A DNA stretch of 64,000 nt from an uncultured Actinomycetes bacterium (lineage in GTDB: Bacteria > Actinomycetota > Thermoleophilia > UBA2241): positions 160,001 through 224,000 of the forward strand of contig CAVRZA010000004.1 in assembly GCA_963725665.1 (NCBI GenBank). Reading direction: 5' to 3'. How positions within the stretch are numbered: position 1 is the first letter of the stretch; the number at the start of each line of letters is the position of its first letter. Below, piece after piece: positions 2,449-31,106 of this stretch. The position numbers were made by a program, and so were the translations under genes. The notes beneath the pieces are model-generated. The model did no database searches and was not told where the DNA came from. It saw nothing but the letters and a program-made list of their open reading frames with translations.

Positions 2449-5112
2449 CGAGTAGAATCCCTGGCCCAGCTTGCAGCCTAACCGCCGCAGCTCGCGCATC
2501 TGCTGTTCCTGCTCGATGCCTTCGGCTACGACCTCGAGCTGGAGCGTCTCGCCCAGGGTGATGATGGCGCGCGCGAGCGCGGAGTGGTCCTCGCCGTCGG
2601 CCACGTGGTCGACGAACGGCTTGGCGATCTTCACACCGTCGACCGGGAACTGGCGCAGATAGCTTAGCGACGAGTAGCCGGTGCCGAAGTCGTCGATCGA
2701 CAGTCGTATGCCGAGCGCCTTGAGCTCCCTGAGCCTCGCCAGGGTGGTGTAGCTGTCCTCGACCAGCGCGGTCTCGGTGATCTCGAGCGTGAGATTGGCC
2801 GGGTCGATCCCGGAGGTCTCCAGCGCGGCGCTGACCTTCTCGACAAGGAGGGGGTCCTTGATCTGCCGCGGGGAGAGGTTGACCGACATGCGTAGCGGCG
2901 TGTCTTTGAAGCGGTCTCCCCACTGGCGGAGCTGACGACACGCCTGGTCGAGAACGAAGTCGCCGATGGGGATGATGAGCCCAGTCTCCTCGGCGACCTG
3001 GATGAACCAGCCCGGGAGCTTGAGGCCCTCGCGAGGATGTTCCCAGCGCACCAGTGCTTCGGTGCCCACGATGCACTGCGTCCTGATCTCGATGATCGGC
3101 TGGTAGAAGACGACGAACTCGTTGCGCTCGACCGCTCGGCGGAGTTCATTCGCCAGCTCGAGCCTTTCGTACACCGCCGCCTGCATGGCCGGCTCGAAGA
3201 CCTCGAGGCGATCCTTGCCGTGTGCTTTCGCCGAGTACATCGCGACGTCGGCGTCGCGCAGAAGCTCCTCCGCGGACGTGTGGGAGCCGTCAGACACGGC
3301 CACCCCAACGCTTACCGATATCGAGAGGTGCGTCGTATCGAGCGAGAAAGCTTCGTCGAACAGGTCGAGCACTCGCTGGGCGACCCGGCACGCCTCGTCG
3401 AGGTCGGTCGCCCCCTCGAGCAGAATGGCGAACTCATCCCCCCCGAGCCTTGCCGCGGTGTCGCTGGCTCTGAGCATGCCGCGCACCCGCTGGGCCACTT
3501 GCACCAGCAGGTTGTCGCCCAGCACGTGGCCGTAGCTGTCGTTGACGAGCTTGAAGTCGTCGATGTCCATGAACAGCACGGCGACATCGACCCCCGTTCT
3601 GGCGGCGTTAGCGAGCGCGTGCTCGACTCGGTCCTTGAAGAGCACGCGGTTCGCGAGTCCGGTCAGGGCATCGTGGAAGGCTTGGTGCTGGAGCTCGTTC
3701 TGAAAGCGGATACGTTCGCCGATGTCCCGCGAGGTGAACACGAGGCCGTGCACGTGAGGATCCTCGAGCAAGTTGGCTATGACCGTCTCCGTGAAATGCC
3801 ACGTTCCTTCATGGTCGCTCATACGCCACTCACCGCGCACGCTGCGCACCGGTTGGCTGGCGCAGTGCGCCACCAACGACAACATGGAGTTGCGGTCGTC
3901 GGGGTGCACCAGGTCGCTGAGCCGGTGTTCCGCGAGGTCCTCGGCGACGTAGCCGAGGACGCTCAGCGCGGACGGAGTGGCGTAGAGGATCGACGTCTCC
4001 TCGTCGGTCACGAGGATGGTGTCGGACGAGTTGGTGACGAGCGAGCGAAAACGCTCCTCCGTCTCGTGCGAGCCCTTGAGCTCGTGCAGGGTACCGCTCT
4101 CGCGTAGGGCCACGACCTGCCTCGCCAAGAGCAGCGGTGTCACGGCCACGGCGGCCAGGATCATCAAGCCGAGCGAAGTGTCGAGAATACCCACGGCGGC
4201 CAGCAGGAGGACCCCGAACCCGGCGGTGGCTGCCACGTAGGCTACGAGATAGGCGAACAGGTTCGGGATGACGATCTCGTGCTGGGGGCCTTCATCGGAT
4301 TTGTTCCGCAATCGCTCGTAGCCTGCCCAGGCAACGAGGATCCAGGACAGCGCGCCCATGCAACTCTGGAGGGTCGCGTTGCCGGTACCGCCATCGATGG
4401 TCTGGTAGCCGTAGATGAGGTCGCTGGCGAGCAGGAGCAGAAGCGCGGCTCCAAGCGCAACCATGCTCGCGTCGCGTGGTAGGGACCGCCGGCGCACGAT
4501 GAGCGATACGAGGCCGAAGACGAGGAGCACGTCGCCCAACGGGAAGGCGGCGGAGACGATCAGCGAAGGCAGGCTTCCTTGAGCCGACGCGAACGTCGGC
4601 ACGATCAGGGTGTAGGCGACGACCATGCCCGCGCCGAAGAGCACCGCCACGGCGTCGAGGGCGAAGCCGACAGCCTCGGCGCGCGTCGTAACGGCTTTGG
4701 GAAACTGCAGCAGCCCCGCCACCGAAAGCGGATAGAAGGCAAGAAAACAGACATCGGCCCACGAGGGCGACGGCACGTAGCCCAGCAGCGCCCCATAGGC
4801 GAAGGTGATCAGGCTGCCGAGCAGCACCGCGAACAGGCCAACGCTGACAAGGAGCCACGGCCTGCGCCACCTCCCGGGCTGCGCCAGCGCCGACAGGAAG
4901 AACAGCACGGTCGACAGGACGACCAGCGCCTCGAAGCTGAGGCTGCTCAGTGCACTGCCGTCGGCGAGCCCCCACCACGCGGAGACACTGGTGAGGATGC
5001 ACAGGCCGCCGACCACGTTGGCGGCTATCAGAAGAAGACGATGCGCATTCGAACGGAGCGTTGCGTGCCGCGATGCCGCTGGACGAGCAAGGGCGGTGTG
5101 CGCCACCGACAT
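2398..5112 (-). CDS. Membrane sensor PAS-GGDEF-EAL c-di-GMP enzyme
   Basis: ~9-10 hydrophobic helices, PAS, RLGGDEF, TEALVRW, IDDFGTGYSSL. Start taken at MSVAHT. Confidence 0.92.
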   Translation of the reverse strand: MSVAHTALARPAASRHATLRSNAHRLLLIAANVVGGLCILTSVSAWWGLADGSALSSLSFEALVVLSTVLFFLSALAQPGRWRRPWLLVSVGLFAVLLGSLITFAYGALLGYVPSPSWADVCFLAFYPLSVAGLLQFPKAVTTRAEAVGFALDAVAVLFGAGMVVAYTLIVPTFASAQGSLPSLIVSAAFPLGDVLLVFGLVSLIVRRRSLPRDASMVALGAALLLLLASDLIYGYQTIDGGTGNATLQSCMGALSWILVAWAGYERLRNKSDEGPQHEIVIPNLFAYLVAYVAATAGFGVLLLAAVGILDTSLGLMILAAVAVTPLLLARQVVALRESGTLHELKGSHETEERFRSLVTNSSDTILVTDEETSILYATPSALSVLGYVAEDLAEHRLSDLVHPDDRNSMLSLVAHCASQPVRSVRGEWRMSDHEGTWHFTETVIANLLEDPHVHGLVFTSRDIGERIRFQNELQHQAFHDALTGLANRVLFKDRVEHALANAARTGVDVAVLFMDIDDFKLVNDSYGHVLGDNLLVQVAQRVRGMLRASDTAARLGGDEFAILLEGATDLDEACRVAQRVLDLFDEAFSLDTTHLSISVSVGVAVSDGSHTSAEELLRDADVAMYSAKAHGKDRLEVFEPAMQAAVYERLELANELRRAVERNEFVVFYQPIIEIRTQCIVGTEALVRWEHPREGLKLPGWFIQVAEETGLIIPIGDFVLDQACRQLRQWGDRFKDTPLRMSVNLSPRQIKDPLLVEKVSAALETSGIDPANLTLEITETALVEDSYTTLARLRELKALGIRLSIDDFGTGYSSLSYLRQFPVDGVKIAKPFVDHVADGEDHSALARAIITLGETLQLEVVAEGIEQEQQMRELRRLGCKLGQGFYSSRPVDAASLGRLLARR

Positions 5113-17407: not shown

Positions 17408-17556
17408 CTGCGGGGTGCGCCGGGCGCTCGGCTGGCTGCCATCGCGTCGGTCGCCCCCGGCCGTGCGGCGCGCGGCCCCGAGCAGTCTTGTCGTCCACCT
17501 CTCAGGCCACGGAGGAGGGACATGATGAGGGGATATGCTTGCAGGCGGAGCCATCG

Positions 17557-18219
17557 ATGACGCAGCGTGTCGTGACACACGAACAGGCGCGGCGCATCTA
17601 CGACGTCATCGGCCGGGGGCAGGACACGCGACCGCTGAGCGAGCGCCGCGCCCTCGACGAGCTGGCGCGGCGCTGCGCCTTCGAGGCGGCGACGGCCGTC
17701 GTTGAGTTCGGCTGCGGGACGGGACGCTACGCGGCCGAACTCCTCCGCACGCGTCTGTCCGCCGAGTGCCGCTACCTGGGCATCGACGTCAGCCCCAAGA
17801 TGGTCGGGCTCGCGAGCGAGAAGCTGGCACCCTGGGCGACGCGGGCCAGGGTCGTGCTGACGGACGGATCCCCGCGGCTGTCGGAGCCCGACGGCTCCTG
17901 CGACCGCTTCATCAGCACCTACGTGATCGATCTACTAAGCGGCGAGGAGACGGCGGTGGTCCTGGCGGAGGCGCACCGTGTGCTGCGCCCCGGTGGTCTC
18001 CTGGGGCTCGTCAGTCTGACATGTGGTGCGACCCTCTCGGCGCGGATGCTCACCGTGGCGTGGCAGCGACTGTGGGCGGTCCGCCCCTGGCTGCTCGGCG
18101 GCTGCCGCCCGATCGAGATCACGGGGTTTCTCTCGCCGGCCCAGTGGTCGCTGCGCGATGAGTCGAGCGTGGGCAAGTACGTCCTGACGTCCCAGGTCGT
18201 GGTGGCGGAGCGGATCTAA
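17557..18219 (+). CDS. Class I SAM-dependent methyltransferase
   Basis: VVEFGCGTG, GIDVSPKM, HRVLRPGG. Confidence 0.85.
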   Translation: MTQRVVTHEQARRIYDVIGRGQDTRPLSERRALDELARRCAFEAATAVVEFGCGTGRYAAELLRTRLSAECRYLGIDVSPKMVGLASEKLAPWATRARVVLTDGSPRLSEPDGSCDRFISTYVIDLLSGEETAVVLAEAHRVLRPGGLLGLVSLTCGATLSARMLTVAWQRLWAVRPWLLGGCRPIEITGFLSPAQWSLRDESSVGKYVLTSQVVVAERI

Positions 18220-18310
18220 GACGCAGCCGCCCCGGCCACCTGCCGGGCGGTGGCGAGGCGAGATACGGGAGGGACTCGGACTGGCCCCCCACGGGCGGCA
18301 AGAGGGCAGC

Positions 18311-18456
18311 AAAAAGCCCGCCGCACTATCTGCAGTTCGCCGCACGGGTCTCCTCTTTGCTTCTCGGGACCGAAGCCCCTTGGGAGTAGATCCCTTGCGG
18401 GGTCTGCTCCTCACGAAGAGGATCTCCGCCGCGTCCCACAAAACGTGACGGCGGGC
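18311..18456 (-). ncRNA. Putative structured small RNA (~146 nt), copy 1, family unknown
   Basis: 5' GCCCGCCG pairs with 3' CGGCGGGC followed by UUUUU. Internal hairpins with GCAA and C(UUCG)G loops. Promoter directly upstream. Confidence 0.7.
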
Positions 18457-18463
18457 AAGCGGC

Positions 18464-18492
18464 ACTCTAGTTGTCCGTCAACGGCGATGCAA
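18464..18492 (-). promoter_or_regulatory. Sigma70-type promoter TTGCAT-N17-TAGAGT
   Basis: -35 at 18492-18487 and -10 at 18469-18464, 7 nt before the paired RNA 5' end. Confidence 0.65.
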
Positions 18493-18749
18493 TACCAAAA
18501 GCCTCGGCCTCTCGCAGAGGGTTGGCTTTCGCCGCCGCCTGGGGGCGGGGCTCATGGTGGGGTCGAGATGGCGCGGGAGCAGCGAAGGTGCACGCACGGG
18601 TTCCGGGGTGGGCCGAGAGTGCGGGGCTCACCGGCGGCGCGTGTCCGCACTCGGGGCGTGGGTCCTCGTCAAGGGTGGTGTCTGCGGCGCGAGTGGTAGT
18701 TGCGGCGCGAGCGCTCTTGCGGCCGGGGCGCCGGTCCCGGCGCGCGCGG

Positions 18750-21638
18750 CTACTGTTTGCGCAGCGCCTCGAGCCGCGAGAGCGTCTTGCCCAGCGCCGT
18801 GATCTGCCGCCCGAACTCCACGAGATCGCCGGCCTTGAGAGCCTGTTGCGCGGCGCCGTACTGCGTGTTGGCGCGAGCGATCAACTGTGCCGCGGCGGCG
18901 GTGGGCGGTGCGCCGGTCGCGGGGCCGCTCGGCGGCCCCGCGGCCGGCGCACCGCCGAAGACCTCGGCCAGCGCGCCCTCGAGCGTGGGTGCCATGACGA
19001 CGTTCTGCTGCTGTCCGGTCGGGGGCAGATTCGTGGTTGCGGACGGCGCGCGGTAGAAGACGATGACTCGCTGCACCTGGGGTAGCTGCGTCTGCTCGGA
19101 CTCGAGGTACAGCGGTTGCACGTAGAGCAACGAATCCACGATCGGGACGACGATGAGGTTGCCGAAGATCACGCGCGACCCGTGCTGCCCCCAGAGCGTC
19201 CGCTGCGCGGAGATGGTGGGGTTCTGGTTCACCGCCGCCTCCACCTGCGCCGGCCCGTACACGTTAAGGCTCGACGGGAACTCGAAGCTCACGGCCTTAC
19301 CGTAGTTGGGGAGGTCGGACTCGGCGCCCAGCCAGCCGATCATGTTGCTGCGCCCGTTGGGCGTGAAGGGCAGGATGAGCACGAACTCCTCGCGCGTCTG
19401 GCCGGGCAGGCGCATGATCATGTAGTAGGGGTTCATCTGGCCGGCCCCGGTGATGGAGACGCCCGTCGGCACTTGCCACTGGTTGCCCTTGTTGTAGAGG
19501 AGGCTGGGGTCGGTCACGTGGTAGGTGGCGAAGAGCTCCGTCTGCGCGGTGAAGAAGTCCTGCGGGTAGCGCACGTGCGCGCGCAAGGTGGCGTCCATCG
19601 CCGCCATGGGCTTGAGCACCCCGGGGAAGACCTTCTCGTAGGTGCGGATGATCGGATCGGCGGGGTCGAAGACGTAGAGGGCCATGCTGCCGTTGTAGGC
19701 GTCGACGACGACCTTCACTGCGTTGCGGATGTAGTTCATGGAGTTGATGCCGGCGAGTGGCTGTGAGTATGGATAGCTGCTCGTGGTCGTGTAGGCGTCG
19801 GCGATCCAGTAGAGGCGCCCGTTCGCGATGACCATGTAGGGAGCGCGGTCGAAGGTGAGGAACGGGGCTGCCTTCGCCAGTCGTGTGCGGATGGCGTTGT
19901 AGATGATGACCCGGCTCTCGCTGGTGATCGCCGTCGTCGTGAAGAACTTGATGGTGCCGAAGCGCACGCAGAAGGCCAGCCGGCTGAAGAACGGATCGAT
20001 GGGGATGCCGCCGCTGCCGTCGTAGCTGTGATAGACGTCGCCGCTCGGGCCGGGGTAGTCGAACTCGGGGAACTTCGTCCTCACAAGCAGGTAGTCCGTG
20101 CCGTTCAGCCCGAAGTAGGTGCGCGGTTGGGTGACCGCCAGCGTGGGCGCGTCGGAGACGACGGGGACGTCCTGCACGAGGAAGTCCGGGGAGCCGCTGG
20201 AGGCCACCTGGTTCACCGCCGAGACGGCCACGCCGTAGCCGTGAGTGTAGGTGACGTGCTGGTTCACCCAGGTCTGGGCCTGGTCCGGCAGTCCGGAGAC
20301 GTTGAGCTCGCGAGGCGACAGCATCGTCTGGCGATAGTCGCCACCGACCTGGTAGCGATCGACGCTAACGGTGGTGAAGGCGTAGTAGGGCCTCAGCTGC
20401 TGTAGCTGGGTGTAACTGCGTTGCAGCGCCTCAGGGTCCCACAGGCGGATGTTGCCGATCGTCCCGGGGTTAGCCCTCAAGGCGGTCGCGGTCAGGTTCC
20501 CGGTGAGGGGATAGGACTTCTCGCTGACCGCGGTGAGGTCGTAGGCCGAGCGCGTCGCGGCGAGGTCGTAGGTGATGTAGGGGAGCTCCCGGCTGAGCTG
20601 GTTGGGATTGACGAAGAGCGACTGGAAGACGGCCGGCACGATGCCAAGCAAGACGATCAGGGCGGCGATCCACGCACCGATGGCGACCAGCGGCCATCGG
20701 GGACGCCGCGCGCGCACGGCATTGTAGACGAGCGCCCCGCCGAGGGCCAGAGCGACCACCATGAGGACGCGGATGATCGGCAGGCGCACGTGTACGTCCG
20801 TATACCCAGCGCCGAAGACGGCCCCCGAGCTGGAGAAGAGCAGGTTCCAAGCCTTCAGAAGGTAGCCGAGGCCGCCCACGATGAAGAGCGCGCCGAGGAG
20901 TGCGGAGAGGTGCGCGACGGCGCCGCTCTCGAGACGCGCGCTCCCGAGCCTGCGCACGCCGCGCGCCACCTGGAGCGGCGCTAGCCCGCCGGGTTCCGCC
21001 CTCGTGGTCGATTCGCGTTGCGGCAGCTCTATCCCCCCGAGCGACAGGTGAACGATGGTGGCGGCGACGAGGGCGACCACGATCGTCGCGAAGAGGAACC
21101 CATAGACGTACTGCCAGGCCGGCAGCGTGAACACATAGAACGAGAGATCGTGATGGAAGATCGGGTCCTTGGTGCCGAAGGGCACACCGTAGATGGCGCG
21201 TGCGAACGTGACCCACGATCCTGCCGCACTGAAGCCGACCATGACGGCGACGATCAGCGTGAGCACCAGACCGACCTGTCGCACGCGCCGCGACGCATTC
21301 TCGTGCACGTATTCGACGACGTCGATGCCCTCGAAGGCGCGGTACTTGGGCGCGATCCGGCGCGCGAGCGCGATGTTGCCGTAGACGATGGCGAAGAATG
21401 CGCCGCCGAACAGGGGGCCCAGCACCAGCCCCATCGTCACGCGTTTCCAGAAGACGTTCCGGAGGGCGACTTCGCCGAACCACAGCCAGTCGACGTAAAG
21501 GCGCGCGACGGTCTCGAGCGCGACGATGAAGACAACGACGGCCAAGACCGCGACGACCACGCGCCGGGCGCGAGACCGGCGCCTTCGACGCGGCGGTTCC
21601 TTCTTGTGACGCCCGCGAAAAGGGATCACTCTGCCCAC
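18750..21638 (-). CDS. UPF0182 family membrane protein
   Basis: DWLWF, DPIFHHDLSFYVF, NIRLWDP, YTHGYG, NYIRNAVKVVVDAYNG. Confidence 0.95.
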   Translation of the reverse strand: MGRVIPFRGRHKKEPPRRRRRSRARRVVVAVLAVVVFIVALETVARLYVDWLWFGEVALRNVFWKRVTMGLVLGPLFGGAFFAIVYGNIALARRIAPKYRAFEGIDVVEYVHENASRRVRQVGLVLTLIVAVMVGFSAAGSWVTFARAIYGVPFGTKDPIFHHDLSFYVFTLPAWQYVYGFLFATIVVALVAATIVHLSLGGIELPQRESTTRAEPGGLAPLQVARGVRRLGSARLESGAVAHLSALLGALFIVGGLGYLLKAWNLLFSSSGAVFGAGYTDVHVRLPIIRVLMVVALALGGALVYNAVRARRPRWPLVAIGAWIAALIVLLGIVPAVFQSLFVNPNQLSRELPYITYDLAATRSAYDLTAVSEKSYPLTGNLTATALRANPGTIGNIRLWDPEALQRSYTQLQQLRPYYAFTTVSVDRYQVGGDYRQTMLSPRELNVSGLPDQAQTWVNQHVTYTHGYGVAVSAVNQVASSGSPDFLVQDVPVVSDAPTLAVTQPRTYFGLNGTDYLLVRTKFPEFDYPGPSGDVYHSYDGSGGIPIDPFFSRLAFCVRFGTIKFFTTTAITSESRVIIYNAIRTRLAKAAPFLTFDRAPYMVIANGRLYWIADAYTTTSSYPYSQPLAGINSMNYIRNAVKVVVDAYNGSMALYVFDPADPIIRTYEKVFPGVLKPMAAMDATLRAHVRYPQDFFTAQTELFATYHVTDPSLLYNKGNQWQVPTGVSITGAGQMNPYYMIMRLPGQTREEFVLILPFTPNGRSNMIGWLGAESDLPNYGKAVSFEFPSSLNVYGPAQVEAAVNQNPTISAQRTLWGQHGSRVIFGNLIVVPIVDSLLYVQPLYLESEQTQLPQVQRVIVFYRAPSATTNLPPTGQQQNVVMAPTLEGALAEVFGGAPAAGPPSGPATGAPPTAAAAQLIARANTQYGAAQQALKAGDLVEFGRQITALGKTLSRLEALRKQ

Positions 21639-21788
21639 GCCTCTATTATGAGCGCGTCCAGCCTCACTGTCGTCGTTCTACGGGCGCTTCGGACGCTGCG
21701 CTGCTGTAGACGCCGTTTCGCAACGGACGCTGCCCTACCGCAACCGCCGTTCCACCGCAAACTTCGCACCGTGGACGGTGCTTGAACT

Positions 21789-21839
21789 CTGGCGCCTCTC
21801 CGACGCCGGCGCCTGTCCGACGCTGGCACCTCTCCGACG
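21789..21839. repeat. 17-bp tandem repeat x3
   Basis: ctggcgcctctccgacg ccggcgcctgtccgacg ctggcacctctccgacg. Confidence 0.8.
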
Positions 21840-21969
21840 CGGCGCGTCTCGCGCCCGCCGACGCTGTTCAGCGTGGGTGCCCTTTTAGCCCGGACGTTGT
21901 TCGACACAGGCCGGGGCGAGGGTAGAAACAGGATAGATTTACTCCGTTTTCAGTCGAAACGAGGTACAC

Positions 21970-22821
21970 ATGGCGGGAGTCAACGGCGCTAGAGCATTCC
22001 AGCTCTCGCCAGCAGCGCGTCTCCTCGACGCGCCCCGGTTCGAGGTCATACCGGTCGGCGGGGTAGAGGAACGAGTGTCCGTGCTCGTGCCCGGCACGAC
22101 CGTGACCGTCACTTGCTCGCAGCGGCACGGCGTCGATCGGACGCTCGAGGTCAGCGAACATCTCGCCCGTCGTGGTTACCGTGTCGTGCCTCACCTGGCG
22201 GCTCGCCTGGTGCGTGACCGCGACCATCTCGAGCAGATCGTCGCGCGACTTGAGGCTGCCGGCATAGGTGAGGCATTCGTCGTCGGCGGCGATGCCTCGA
22301 CCCCGGCCGGCAGCTATCGCGACGCGGGCGATCTGCTCGAGGCGCTCGACTCTCTCGCGGACTCTCCCGCGGTGGTCGGCGTGGCGGGATACCCGGAGGG
22401 GCATCCGTTCATCAGCGAGGCGCGGCTACTCGATGCCCTGCGGCGCGCGCAGCCGCACGCCGACCACGTCGTGACTCAGATCTGCTTCGAGGCGGATGCC
22501 CTCGTCCGCTGGATCCACCGCATCCGGCAGGCGGGGATAACGCTGCCCGTCATCGTGGGTCTGCCCGGCGTCGTCGAGCGCCGCAAGCTCGCCGAGATAT
22601 CACTGCAGGCCGGCGTCGGTCCCTCGCTGCGCTACGTCGCGAGGCACGGTCGGCAGCTCGCGTCGCTGGCGCGCTCGCGGCGCTACGATCCGACTCCCTT
22701 GACGCGCGCGATCGCGGCCCATATCGACGATCCGGGGCTGGGCATAGGAGGCGTGCACCTGTTCACCTTCAACCAGGTCGAGACGACGCAGGCCTGGCTG
22801 GCGCGCACAGGGTCGCCATAG
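21970..22821 (+). CDS. metF: Methylenetetrahydrofolate reductase family protein
   Basis: VVPHLAAR, FVVGGD, VAGYPEGHP, VTQICF, HLFTFN. Confidence 0.85.
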   Translation: MAGVNGARAFQLSPAARLLDAPRFEVIPVGGVEERVSVLVPGTTVTVTCSQRHGVDRTLEVSEHLARRGYRVVPHLAARLVRDRDHLEQIVARLEAAGIGEAFVVGGDASTPAGSYRDAGDLLEALDSLADSPAVVGVAGYPEGHPFISEARLLDALRRAQPHADHVVTQICFEADALVRWIHRIRQAGITLPVIVGLPGVVERRKLAEISLQAGVGPSLRYVARHGRQLASLARSRRYDPTPLTRAIAAHIDDPGLGIGGVHLFTFNQVETTQAWLARTGSP

Positions 22822-22881
22822 GTGTCGCATCGTCGCAGGAGGCCTGGTCGGGGAGGCCTGTGCGGGAGGCGGGAGGGTTCA

Positions 22882-23170
22882 GACTGGCCCCCCACGGGCG
22901 GCAAGAGGGCAGCAAAAAGCCCGCCGCACTATCTGCAGTTCGCCGCACGGGTCTCCTCTTTGCTTCTCGGGACCGAAGCCCCTTGGGAGTAGATCCCTTG
23001 CGGGGTCTGCTCCTCACGAAGAGGATCTCCGCCGCGTCCCACAAAACGTGACGGCGGGCAAGCGGCACTCTAGTTGTCCGTCGACGGCGATGCAATACCA
23101 AAAGCCTCGGCCTCTCGCAGAGGGTTGGCTTTCGCCGCCGCCTGGGGGCGGGGTTCATGGTGGGGTCGAG
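22882..23170. repeat. 289-bp direct repeat, copy 2
   Basis: Offset 4603 bp from copy 1, same orientation. Confidence 0.95.
22914..23059 (-). ncRNA. Putative structured small RNA, copy 2 (identical to copy 1)
   Basis: Same sequence as 18311..18456, with promoter TTGCAT-N17-TAGAGT at 23095-23067. Confidence 0.7.
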
Positions 23171-23236
23171 GGAAGGCTGAGCGAGCACCGGTGCGTGGCT
23201 GCTAGAATCGTGCTCCGCGATTCCGGAGGTAGGCCC

Positions 23237-23788
23237 ATGAACATCCTCGCCATCGGAGGGAGCGCTCGGCTCAACGGCAACAGCAACTCCCTCATGCGGA
23301 CAGCCGTCGAGAGCGCGGTCAAGAGGGGAGCCACGGCGGAGATCCTGTACGCGCGGAAGCTGGACGTGCAAGGTTGCCTCGGTTGTGACGGGTGCAAGCG
23401 CTCGGCCGACTCGACGTGCGTCGTCGACGACGACATGCACAGGGTCTACGCACTGCTGAAGGAGTGCGACGTCCTCGTCGTGGCGACTCCCGTCTATTTC
23501 TACTCCATGACCTCGTGGCTCAAGGCGATCGTCGATCGCTTCTACGGGCTGCTCGACCCAGACTCCGAACCGCGCCTCGAGAAGGGGAAGGGCTTCTACG
23601 CCATCACCAGCGAGGAGGAAGAGCGCGCCTACACGGGGCAACAGGTCATAGCGACGCTGATGCGCGGCCTGGCCTGGTTCGGGATGGACCTGCGCGGCGA
23701 GTTGGTCGCCGTCGACGTGGGCAAGGCCGGCGACTGGAAGAAGCGGCAGGATCTCATCCAGGCGGCGGAGCGTCTCATCGTGGTGTGA
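23237..23788 (+). CDS. Flavodoxin-like iron-sulfur flavoprotein / NADPH-dependent FMN reductase
   Basis: GSARLNGNS, CLGCDGC...C, ATPVYFY. GGAGG RBS. Confidence 0.88.
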   Translation: MNILAIGGSARLNGNSNSLMRTAVESAVKRGATAEILYARKLDVQGCLGCDGCKRSADSTCVVDDDMHRVYALLKECDVLVVATPVYFYSMTSWLKAIVDRFYGLLDPDSEPRLEKGKGFYAITSEEEERAYTGQQVIATLMRGLAWFGMDLRGELVAVDVGKAGDWKKRQDLIQAAERLIVV

Positions 23789-29699: not shown

Positions 29700-31106
29700 A
29701 TGAAGATACTGACGAGGCTGGGCGACAACTCCAACGTCGAGCTGACGCGGGAGGAGTTGCGCAAGGAGCTCGAGGAGGGCACGCAGGCCGCGGCGACCAA
29801 GGCCAAGATCGCCCCGCTCACCGAGAACGAGCTCGACTACCTCGAGGAGATGTTCGTCTGTCCCAGCCGCATCTGGGGCGTCGAGCGCGGCCACGAGGTG
29901 GTCATGACCAAGGACGGCTGCGTCAACGCGCTCAACTCGTCGCGCATGTCGAGCGGCGTCGCGGCGCCCGTCAACCGCGAGGTGGGGGTGCGCCTCTTCG
30001 AGTCGATGCTGGGCTTCGACTCGATGGAAGTCTCGCACAACGACTACTCGGTCAAGCCGCAGCGCTTCCTCAAGGCGCTCGAGCAGGTGCATATGGAGCT
30101 CCTGCAGGAGACGACGATCTTTCCCCTGCTCTACGGCTTCATGCCGAACTTGGGCCTCTACTACCGGCCCGACGGCTCCTTCCCCAACCCCTCCGACCTG
30201 CTGCCGATGGGCAAGATCGACGAGGCTCGGCAGACGCAGGAAGAGGCCCTCGAGGCTTGCCAGGCGGACTGCATCGAGATGAGCGACTGCATGCTCGAGA
30301 TGGGTGCCGACGGCATCGACTACGACACCGTGGCGTCGACCGGCGACGCGGAGTTCCTGGCGGTGCTGCGCACGACCGAGCATGTGGCGAACGAGACGGG
30401 GCTGCCGGTCGAGATCGGCATGTCGGCCGAGATGGTGCTCGGCTTCCACGGCCAGCTCGAGTACGACGGCGTGCGCCTGGCCGGCCTGTGGCCGCACCAG
30501 CAGGTGCAGCTCTGCGAGAAGGCCGGCTGCACGATCTTCGGCCCGGTCGTCAACACCAACACGAGGAAGACCATCCCCTGGAACCTGTCGCGGGCCGTCA
30601 CCTTCGTCAAGGCCTGCACCGACATCGCCAAGATCCCCGTGCACGCCAACTGCGGCATGGGCGTCGGCGGCGTGGCCATGTTCGAAACGCCCGCCGTCGA
30701 CGTCGTGACGCGCGCCGGCGCGGCCATGGTCGAGATCGGCCGCGTCGACGGGTTGTAGGTGGGCACGGGCGACCCGGCCGGGATGCACACGGCGCATCTG
30801 TTGGCCTCGTCGATGGGTGGCATCAGGGCTGCCGGAGATCTGGTGGCGAGGATGCAGCTCAGCAAGAAGATGAGGATCGACGATGCCAAGCGGTACGTGG
30901 CCGACAAGCTCCATGTGAGCCCGCTCGACCTCTCCGACCCGACGGTGATGAGGCTCCTGCGCGAGGAGCTCGACATCGGCGTGGTCACGGCCGTCCCCGG
31001 CATCGCCAAGGGCATGGCGGCCAAGGTGCGCATCGCCGAGCTGCTCGACATCGAGATCAACTCGGTCGAGCAGTTCAAGAAGAAGACGGGCCTGCGCAGC
31101 GTGTAG
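29700..31106 (+). CDS. mtbB: Dimethylamine:corrinoid methyltransferase MtbB with in-frame TAG (pyrrolysine) at 30756-30758
   Basis: ORFs 29700..30758 and 30759..31106 are in the same frame, separated only by TAG. VDGL-[TAG]-VGTGDP...[10 protein letters not shown]...LREELDIG matches the MtbB VDG(I/V)-Pyl-IGVGDP context. Confidence 0.92.

Follow-up and report, generated by a model that had tools for sequence, protein, structure and literature searches.

A candidate family of stand-alone structured small RNAs with a narrow, patchy distribution in uncultured Actinomycetota

Sibling small RNAs (sRNAs) such as Qrr1-5, PrrF1/2, and OmrA/B have their own promoter and a Rho-independent-type end, occur as several paralogues, sometimes adjacent, with diverged or identical sequences, and expose a seed that usually acts together with Hfq. 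6S RNA (RF00013) is abundant, stable, and rod-like, with a large central bubble and typically a single conserved housekeeping copy, while bacterial Y RNAs, which occur with the TROVE-domain protein Ro/Rsr, usually encoded nearby, have a stem formed by their ends, a patchy distribution, and often several paralogues. CsrB/RsmZ-type sponges are multicopy and carry repeated GGA-containing motifs in hairpin loops, and orphan structured non-coding RNAs (ncRNAs), such as the raiA motif and the Rfam motifs of type 'Gene; sRNA', combine a complex covarying fold with tetraloop-capped hairpins. Antisense RNA under riboswitch control is exemplified by the B12-controlled AspocR of Listeria. Here, a 64,000-nucleotide stretch of DNA from an uncultured Actinomycetes bacterium (Actinomycetota, Thermoleophilia, UBA2241; assembly GCA_963725665.1, contig CAVRZA010000004.1, positions 160,001 to 224,000 of the forward strand), referred to below as the window, was analyzed computationally with respect to a 141-nt RNA that is encoded in two identical copies on its minus strand. 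This RNA represents a new family, although its general type, that of stand-alone structured small RNAs, is known. With moderate confidence, we interpret the family as compact, trans-acting RNAs that probably bind a protein or a ligand, with copies that were homogenized in this genome, most likely by gene conversion.

Comparison with these systems showed partial likeness to each of them. As in sibling sRNAs, the RNA is stand-alone, multicopy, and equipped with its own promoter; unlike sibling sRNAs, it is almost fully paired, and no gene for Hfq (PF17209) was found in its genome, which is 97.5% complete. A rod closed by its own ends and an own promoter are reminiscent of 6S RNA, from which it differs by the lack of a central bubble, a three-way junction, a patchy occurrence, and a faster divergence within the sister genus. 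It shares with Y RNAs a closing stem made of the 5′ and 3′ ends, patchiness, and paralogues, but it has no tRNA-like module and matches no Rfam Y RNA or YrlA model, and a search for a TROVE/Ro gene (PF05731) gave no match in the genome, in contrast to the control genomes. Multiple copies and repeated GGA-containing motifs resemble CsrB/RsmZ sponges; however, the GGA motifs lie inside helices rather than in hairpin loops, and no CsrA gene (PF02599) was found in the genome. The complex covarying fold, tetraloop-capped hairpins, and non-coding nature are those of orphan structured ncRNAs, whereas the much narrower range (one Actinomycetota family), the multiple copies, and the conserved promoter are not. 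Like AspocR-type RNAs, finally, it is a structured RNA with a terminator end that faces a convergent gene, but the convergent genes are functionally unrelated between loci.

The repeat, the covarying fold, the conservation of the promoter, the absence from Rfam, the presence of a short RNA in environmental libraries, and the independence from neighboring genes were established by the analyses that follow. A repeat search detected one family of direct repeats, consisting of two 292-nt units on the minus strand (18276-18567 and 22879-23170) that are 99% identical and 4603 bp apart. As defined by repeat search, alignment, and blastn, each unit comprises an upstream block, a promoter, the RNA, a U-run, and a tail of ~35 nt. 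Pairwise alignment of the two copies showed two substitutions, neither of them inside the RNA: one at 18551, 95 nt upstream of the RNA (G in copy 1, A in copy 2), and one at 18480 in the promoter spacer (T in copy 1, C in copy 2). An earlier note, made from the letters of the window alone, had described a direct repeat with this spacing and with two substitutions outside the RNA, and both the repeat search and the alignment bore this out. Its copy number of two, by contrast, has to be raised to three, since another contig of the same genome (G000:C2:392375-392530) holds a further copy whose RNA is 100% identical and which shares 252 nt of the repeat unit at 99.6% identity (blastn, own genome). 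Beyond the shared 252-292 nt, the flanks of the three copies differ; the three RNAs are identical. Based on the covariance model and the helix map, the RNA of copy 1 extends over 18316-18456, from a 5′ G at 18456 to a 3′ end where the closing helix has its base, and that of copy 2 over 22919-23059. It scores 170-183 bits with the covariance model, and its G+C content is 64%, that of the genome being 68.4%.

The RNA was predicted to fold at -75.9 kcal/mol (z = -3.5), and none of 200 shuffled sequences folded as well. A structure alignment of 15 copies, representing 14 distinct sequences, was described by a model of 44 pairs in seven helices. Over the 14 distinct sequences, standard pairing was observed in 95.1% of 609 cells, G-U pairs made up 58 of the 609, and compensatory changes occurred in 10 of the 44 pairs, spread over 26 cells. 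Column shuffling never attained the observed pairing and compensatory values (0 of 500 controls), and sliding the 3′ partners by 1-3 columns reduced pairing to 44-51%. The structured RNA proposed in the earlier note is thus matched by covariation among its homologues.

In overall shape, the fold is a long closing rod (helices H1-H3) with conserved internal loops and a three-way junction on top. All of its elements are read on the minus strand. The 5′ strand of H1 (18436-18456) forms 17 pairs with 18316-18335, with 96.2% of cells paired and two compensatory pairs; within it, the RNA 5′ end GCCCGCCG, starting at 18456, pairs with 3′ CGGCGGGC (18323-18316). Helix H4, of which the 5′ strand UCCUCUU (18416-18422) pairs with AAGAGGA (18351-18357), closes the junction and shows compensatory changes in four of its seven pairs. 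Arm A (18381-18413) consists of H5 (GAGGAG/CUCC) and an apical H6 (CCC/GGG), mostly with an NCAA tetraloop, and its pair 68:97 is G-C in eight sequences, A-U in six, and broken in none. Arm B (18366-18379; H7, GGGGC-UUCG-GUCCC) is paired in 97.1% of cells, with one compensatory pair and a UUCG or CAAG loop, and is followed by the conserved, purine-rich junction strand GAGAAGC (18358-18365). Three parts of the RNA are strongly conserved in sequence: its closing helix, the internal loop GACGCG/GCGAAC, and its junction. According to partition-function folding of the 14 sequences, conserved unpaired stretches are all at most 5 nt long. A local hairpin UCCUC-uucgu-GAGGA, which had been part of the earlier note, did not withstand this analysis. 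It could be formed in 97% of cells, but none of its five pairs covaried and the partner helix that it implies was paired in only 85.5%; covariation instead favors CCUCUU/AAGAGG and GAGGAG/CUCC, arranged as a three-way junction.

With the covariance model, the reverse strand scored 16-27 bits, as compared to 170-183 bits for the minus strand. Together with the G-U pairs, this difference indicated that the minus strand is the functional one. The same results bear on the alternative that the repeat is a DNA-level element, either a REP- or MITE-like palindrome or a bidirectional terminator/insulator cassette, which was spread by recombination and in which the RNA is incidental. Consistent with such an element, the termini consist of 12-bp inverted repeats that hardly vary, the copies are multiple, patchy, and non-syntenic, copy 3 adjoins a truncated transposase-like open reading frame (ORF), and the RNA of one relative (G107) lies in a 1.7-kb interval that another (G027) lacks. 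However, the 58 G-U cells and the strand-specific conservation (170 versus 27 bits between strands) reflect selection on one RNA strand, the promoter is conserved, and the unit has no fixed ends, as its copies share either 292 or 252 nt and relatives share the RNA only. Furthermore, no target-site duplications were seen by eye, BLAST searches of plasmids and phages yielded no match to the RNA, and in IMG/VR a strict motif pattern found no stretch and a loose pattern 22 stretches, none of which was confirmed. We therefore consider a DNA-level origin of the conservation very improbable.

The predicted promoter of copy 1 (18464-18492, minus strand) consists of a -35 element TTGCAT (18492-18487), a 17-nt spacer, and a -10 element TAGAGT (18469-18464), and is located 7 nt before the RNA; its equivalent in copy 2 is found at 23067-23095 on the same strand. 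Comparison of 14 upstream regions showed an aligned TTGC-type -35 and TAnnGT-type -10 element in every one of them, always equally far from the start of the RNA. Still further upstream, a hairpin with a T-run, CCTCT-GCG-AGAGG within AAAGCC/GGCTTT, is present on the minus strand of both copies (18497-18529 and 23100-23132). This hairpin, which was flagged on the plus strand by a terminator-like scan (18508-18520 and 23111-23123), is kept in the own clade only and is not covered by RNA-library contigs; it may be an insulating or bidirectional terminator outside the stable RNA. At the other end, the closing helix is followed on the minus strand by a U-run (18311-18315; copy 2, 22914-22918), recognized by reading of the sequence and by the terminator-like scan, which flagged this end together with a local hairpin. 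The succession of minus-strand elements given in the earlier note, from hairpin and T-run via TTGCAT, spacer, TAGAGT, and a 7-nt gap to the RNA and UUUUU, was found complete.

Further upstream blocks, at about -105 to -35, are conserved in the own clade and in two clades of the sister genus (g10). The DNA blocks common to the three clades read CCTCGACC(A/C)C..GAG near -105 and CTCTG..GAG.G.CGAGG near -55 to -35, and are located at 18497-18567 and 23100-23170 in the window and in loci L146-L148, L019, L020, L144, and L145. Because RNA-library contigs do not cover them, these blocks are read as putative regulatory or insulating DNA, which may be a regulator site or a bidirectional terminator. 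A genome-wide search with the upstream motif as a regulon signal was uninformative, as the 8-mer is common in GC-rich coding DNA.

Public sequencing runs were used to look for the transcript. For the interval 18100-18800, 24 runs were listed, among which six metatranscriptomes held 6-7% of the sampled words and 14 DNA-type runs 12-26%. Contigs were examined from four of the metatranscriptomes, which belong to four studies with the labels metagenome, groundwater, sediment, and soil; two further RNA runs held 6%, and no conclusion on habitat or abundance is based on these or on the DNA-type runs. Each of the four libraries contained one or two matching contigs of 80-166 nt with 90-99% similarity (one of the five below 95%). 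These contigs covered only 18315-18454, and none was located on 18100-18291 or 18460-18800; the uncovered parts are no evidence of silence, as the flanks of relatives may differ. Loose letters, which we take to be Illumina adapter, abutted the contigs at 18316 (X16, X18), at 18321, and at 18454 (X15). Adapter letters at contig edges imply that, independently in different libraries, the inserts stopped where the RNA is predicted to end. The predicted ends near 18456, given as transcript start in the earlier note, and near 18316 coincide with the limits of short, adapter-bounded contigs from RNA libraries. These contigs fit a discrete, stable RNA of ~140 nt, without amounting to proof.

A scan of the whole window at the gathering thresholds of Rfam 15 (4227 models) gave no match at the RNA loci. 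When the locus was scanned permissively (E ≤ 10), only three weak and unrelated matches (11.6-15.5 bits) were obtained; none of 11 homologue loci had a gathering-level match, and permissive scans of diverged homologues did not yield a recurrent family. The description of the RNA as unrecognized thus holds for the window copy as well as for its homologues. No mention of this RNA was found by a literature search of the full text of articles, exclusive of supplements, which returned broad surveys of motifs, themselves represented in Rfam, and papers on other subjects.

These results also concern the possibility that the RNA is a divergent member of a known family, i.e., 6S RNA, signal recognition particle (SRP) RNA, Y RNA, or a CsrB-type sponge, that Rfam models fail to detect. 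A rod closed by the 5′ and 3′ ends is found in 6S, SRP, and Y RNAs, and several GGA motifs are present, but even at E ≤ 10 no such family was matched, either by the window copy or by homologues that have diverged from it. The genome has a canonical 6S RNA at another locus (C3:174454-174607, 63.1 bits), and 6S RNA was likewise found in five of five relatives tested, so that the 6S-like option of the earlier note can be set aside. Moreover, the present RNA has small internal loops, no central bubble, and a three-way junction, and occurs in only 5 of 89 family genomes. A Y RNA or Ro ribonucleoprotein was rejected on the basis of the missing TROVE-domain gene, and a CsrB/RsmZ-type sponge on the basis of the missing CsrA gene and the position of the GGA motifs in paired columns; the suggestion of a GGA-rich protein sponge, taken in the CsrA sense, is thereby withdrawn. 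Overall, membership of a known family appears extremely improbable. The observed features, namely a conserved promoter, defined ends, covariation, and frame-breaking indels, are those of a stand-alone structured sRNA.

In the proposed mechanism, transcription would be driven by a sigma-A-type promoter, TTGCAT-N17-TAGAGT, and would begin at G18456 or close to it (G23059 for copy 2). The resulting RNA is predicted to form a rod that is paired almost throughout, with a GC-rich closing helix, GCCCGCCG/CGGCGGGC, conserved internal loops, and, as a cap, a three-way junction composed of two short hairpins and the purine-rich GAGAAGC strand. The closing helix and U-run would end the transcript, and the mature RNA would be trimmed to a blunt end at 18316. 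As a putative member of a new, fast-evolving, and often multicopy ('sibling') family, it would then act in trans, with a protein or small ligand bound via the junction and internal loops. We infer both the action in trans and the binding mode; binding of a protein or ligand is favored over long mRNA pairing because the RNA has no long conserved single-stranded segment. A more specific proposal, which we put forward only tentatively, is that the RNA is the subunit or sensor of an undescribed regulatory complex and binds a specific protein or metabolite via its invariant closing helix, the GCGAAC/GACGCG loop, and the GAGAAGC junction. Such a sensor would be so abundant that it can be assembled from metatranscriptomes of soil, sediment, and groundwater, and its paralogues would arise and disappear in a birth-and-death process within an Actinomycetota lineage that is uncultured and anaerobic and may also decode pyrrolysine.

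The main rival of protein or ligand binding is a seed-pairing regulator; a role in cis or as antisense RNA comes next, and the DNA-level repeat discussed above comes third. A classical base-pairing sibling sRNA, similar to Qrr or PrrF, would use a short exposed segment, for which GAGAAGC or the Shine-Dalgarno-like GAGGAG would be candidates. An own promoter and terminator, multiple copies, and an intergenic location are typical of sibling sRNAs, and the RNA combines these properties with copies that are near-identical or diverged. Nevertheless, the single-stranded stretches that are conserved are predicted to measure 5 nt at most, and the exposed strand is purine-rich and would therefore not target Shine-Dalgarno regions. 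Strong conservation in helices and internal loops is, moreover, unlike a constraint on a seed only. These properties make base pairing an unlikely mode of action, and the Hfq-dependent variant in particular was rejected in view of the short unpaired stretches and the missing Hfq gene, even though a U-run is present.

Several observations weigh against the interpretation as a family of protein- or ligand-binding, trans-acting RNAs. The alignment was fitted to the model and includes only about five clades, so that the covariation counts lean towards structure, and related sequences can outperform shuffled controls without any structure. The outer ten pairs of the closing helix are nearly invariant and hence have no covariation support. 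The promoter matches a simple consensus at 7 of 12 positions, which is below the threshold of the scanner, and was missed by it. Contigs from the RNA libraries derive from close relatives, are blind to strand and level, may reflect DNA carry-over, and are bounded by letters of presumed adapter origin. Genes for Hfq, CsrA, and TROVE proteins were not found in the genome, and a conserved neighbor or partner protein was not found across clades either. The patchy distribution, finally, with carriers among only 4 of the 30 genomes of the sister genus that are well assembled, speaks against a core cellular role.

The distribution of the RNA was analyzed by sequence and covariance-model searches. BLAST of the RNA against 60 relatives identified one real homologue (G027, 73% identity), while five other matches of 19-36 nt (E 0.003-0.008) were treated as chance. 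A covariance model built from two sequences found nine copies in 5 of 89 family genomes, namely the own genome and four members of genus g10, for which 54 genomes were searched; of the four g10 carriers, two have two copies each. Carriers represent 4 of the 30 g10 genomes that are at least 85% complete. Weak model matches of ~60 nt in G094 and G018 (25 and 23.5 bits, respectively) were treated as noise. No match was found with a rebuilt model in ten further families of the class, represented by 125 genomes, or with a third model in 150 other genomes sampled from the phylum. A motif-pattern search retrieved six metagenome contigs with seven copies, and all six contigs were confirmed at 115-161 bits. 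Overall, covariance models contributed 12 additional copies from the four related genomes and the six metagenome contigs. In genome contigs, a loose pattern retrieved 120 stretches, and none of the 80 loci examined matched the model. The RNA thus has a narrow and patchy distribution, and was found only in one family of uncultured Actinomycetota.

Paralogues have diverged to different degrees in the relatives. The two RNA copies on metagenome contig L148 are 82% identical, and those of G027, located 4.1 kb apart around FUSC and MFS genes, are 78% identical; the fold is kept in both cases. The G088 copies, which are part of a tandem duplication of 2329 bp, are 98% identical. Since diverged paralogues keep the fold, both copies are evidently maintained. 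We infer that the three RNAs of the own genome were recently homogenized from an older set of paralogues, for which gene conversion is the most likely route. Between the own genome and g10, identity of the RNA (59-72%) is similar to that of 6S RNA (66-70%), whereas within g10 it is only 54-70%, as compared to 84-93% for 6S RNA. Loci differ among genomes, as illustrated by the above-mentioned G107 copy, and relatives share the RNA only, not the surrounding unit. Evolution of the family is of an accessory, birth-and-death type, unlike that of a housekeeping RNA.

Time and again, RNAs that combine a complex fold with conserved junctions have proved to be riboswitches, ribozymes, or the cores of RNA-protein complexes. 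The RNA described here offers a defined entry point to RNA-based regulation in an Actinomycetota lineage without cultured members or genetic tools. It is also a useful case for studying how small RNA genes spread and are maintained, as it is identical within this genome, diverged in relatives, patchy, and faster evolving than 6S RNA. Its narrow range limits this relevance, and new sRNA families are not rare.

Three observations were made in the vicinity of RNA copies outside the window. The tandem duplication of 2329 bp in G088 (L020, G088:C12, 5723-10500) is 98-100% identical and contains the RNA gene and part of an ORF of 478-498 amino acids, for which neither a Pfam match nor a homologue in the genome of the window was found. 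Just upstream of copy 3 on contig C2 of the own genome (L003 1988-2728, minus strand), a truncated transposase-like ORF, presumably similar to IS21 IstA, matches only the N-terminal Pfam domains HTH_7, HTH_23, and HTH_38, and represents the sole trace of a mobile element beside any copy. Contig ends C4:167-1514 and C6:1528-2310 of the own genome carry genes homologous to the FUSC and MFS genes by which the two G027 copies are separated; these ends contain no RNA sequence, and a further, unassembled copy at the break is conceivable.

In the window, copy 1 is convergent with a gene encoding an S-adenosylmethionine (SAM)-dependent methyltransferase (17488-18219, plus strand; Pfam Methyltransf_25/11). 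Copy 2 is convergent with a gene resembling that for methylenetetrahydrofolate reductase (MTHFR; 21970-22821, plus strand; PF02219), which is absent from the homologous interval of L148. The copies are separated by a gene for a UPF0182 membrane protein (18750-21638, minus strand; PF03699, 922 bits). The atlas clusters nearest to this protein come from Actinomycetota, which makes the organism a probable uncultured member of that phylum. A promoter scan identified a promoter-like site, ACGACA-17-CATAAT (21673-21645, minus strand), for this gene, which is conserved in L148 (~4880-4920). The site is located only a few bases before the GTG start, which suggests a leaderless or very short-leader UPF0182 mRNA. 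A GC3-based gene call around 13 copies showed a convergent downstream gene, 30-290 nt away, at eight of them, and one clear co-directional case, the upstream copy of L148, at ~150 nt before UPF0182. Functions of the downstream genes are unrelated (methyltransferase, MTHFR-like, MFS, DUF6325, and protease), and the neighbors are likewise unrelated between clades, where FMN reductase, FUSC, nitroreductase, and MazF-like genes also occur. A link of the RNA loci to tRNA genes or integration sites was not found.

The frequency of convergent downstream genes (8 of 13) and the conserved promoter of UPF0182 itself, in the window and in L148, make a cis leader role unlikely, in agreement with the earlier note, which had doubted a cis riboswitch. 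Two forms of cis element were considered, a leader or riboswitch and a ligand-controlled terminator with read-through antisense, comparable to an excludon or to AspocR. The co-directional L148 copy upstream of UPF0182, the eight copies that face a convergent gene, and an aptamer-like junction closed by a helix that doubles as terminator would suit such a role. However, the UPF0182 promoter is situated just before the start, downstream genes have no common function, eight convergent genes out of 13 is near chance, and the RNA-library contigs stop at the terminator. Cis action is therefore regarded as quite improbable, and the RNA was not assigned to the cis-regulatory leaders or riboswitches.

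A coding function was excluded, since the homologues differ by 1- and 2-nt indels throughout, which rules out a conserved reading frame. Two ORFs were rejected individually: a 25-codon ORF that begins at a conserved ATGAG of the upstream block lacks the stop codon in copy 2 and the ATG in L148, and a 148-amino-acid ORF that precedes the RNA in L020 is a spurious, Arg/Gly-rich frame without a Pfam match.

Exact repeats can be collapsed or duplicated in metagenome-assembled genomes, which leaves room for an assembly artefact. Both copies have unique flanks, however, and L148, in which UPF0182 is 83% identical (tblastx), shows the order RNA-UPF0182-RNA, while L143, L146, and L147 each join the RNA to unique flanks of the window. 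The independent order in L148 and these joins demonstrated that the duplication is real, and the probability of an artefact is negligible. Misassembly, which the earlier note had taken into account, is countered by this independent contig from a metagenome, in which UPF0182 is again flanked by two RNA copies.

The longest ORF of an FMN-reductase gene in the window (23048-23788, plus strand; 246 amino acids, GTG start) overlaps RNA copy 2 and its promoter. Its homologue in L146 has 210 amino acids, with similarity beginning near 23213, and the true start of the gene is probably downstream of the repeat. In L145 (826-1411, minus strand), a PemK/MazF-like toxin gene that follows a small ORF was found directly downstream of the RNA, on this one metagenome contig only.

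Elsewhere in the window, a gene for an MtbB-like dimethylamine methyltransferase (29700-31100, plus strand) contains a single in-frame TAG near 30765. The only gathering-level Rfam match in the window, PYLIS_2 (30756-30855, 63.6 bits), is located exactly at this TAG, and a tRNA-Pyl with anticodon CUA is encoded at C6:343702-343774 of the own genome. The in-frame TAG at PYLIS_2 and the tRNA-Pyl suggest that this uncultured Actinomycetota-like genome decodes pyrrolysine. A tRNA-Sec with anticodon UCA was called by ARAGORN at C11:550041-550138, which indicates that the organism probably also uses selenocysteine.

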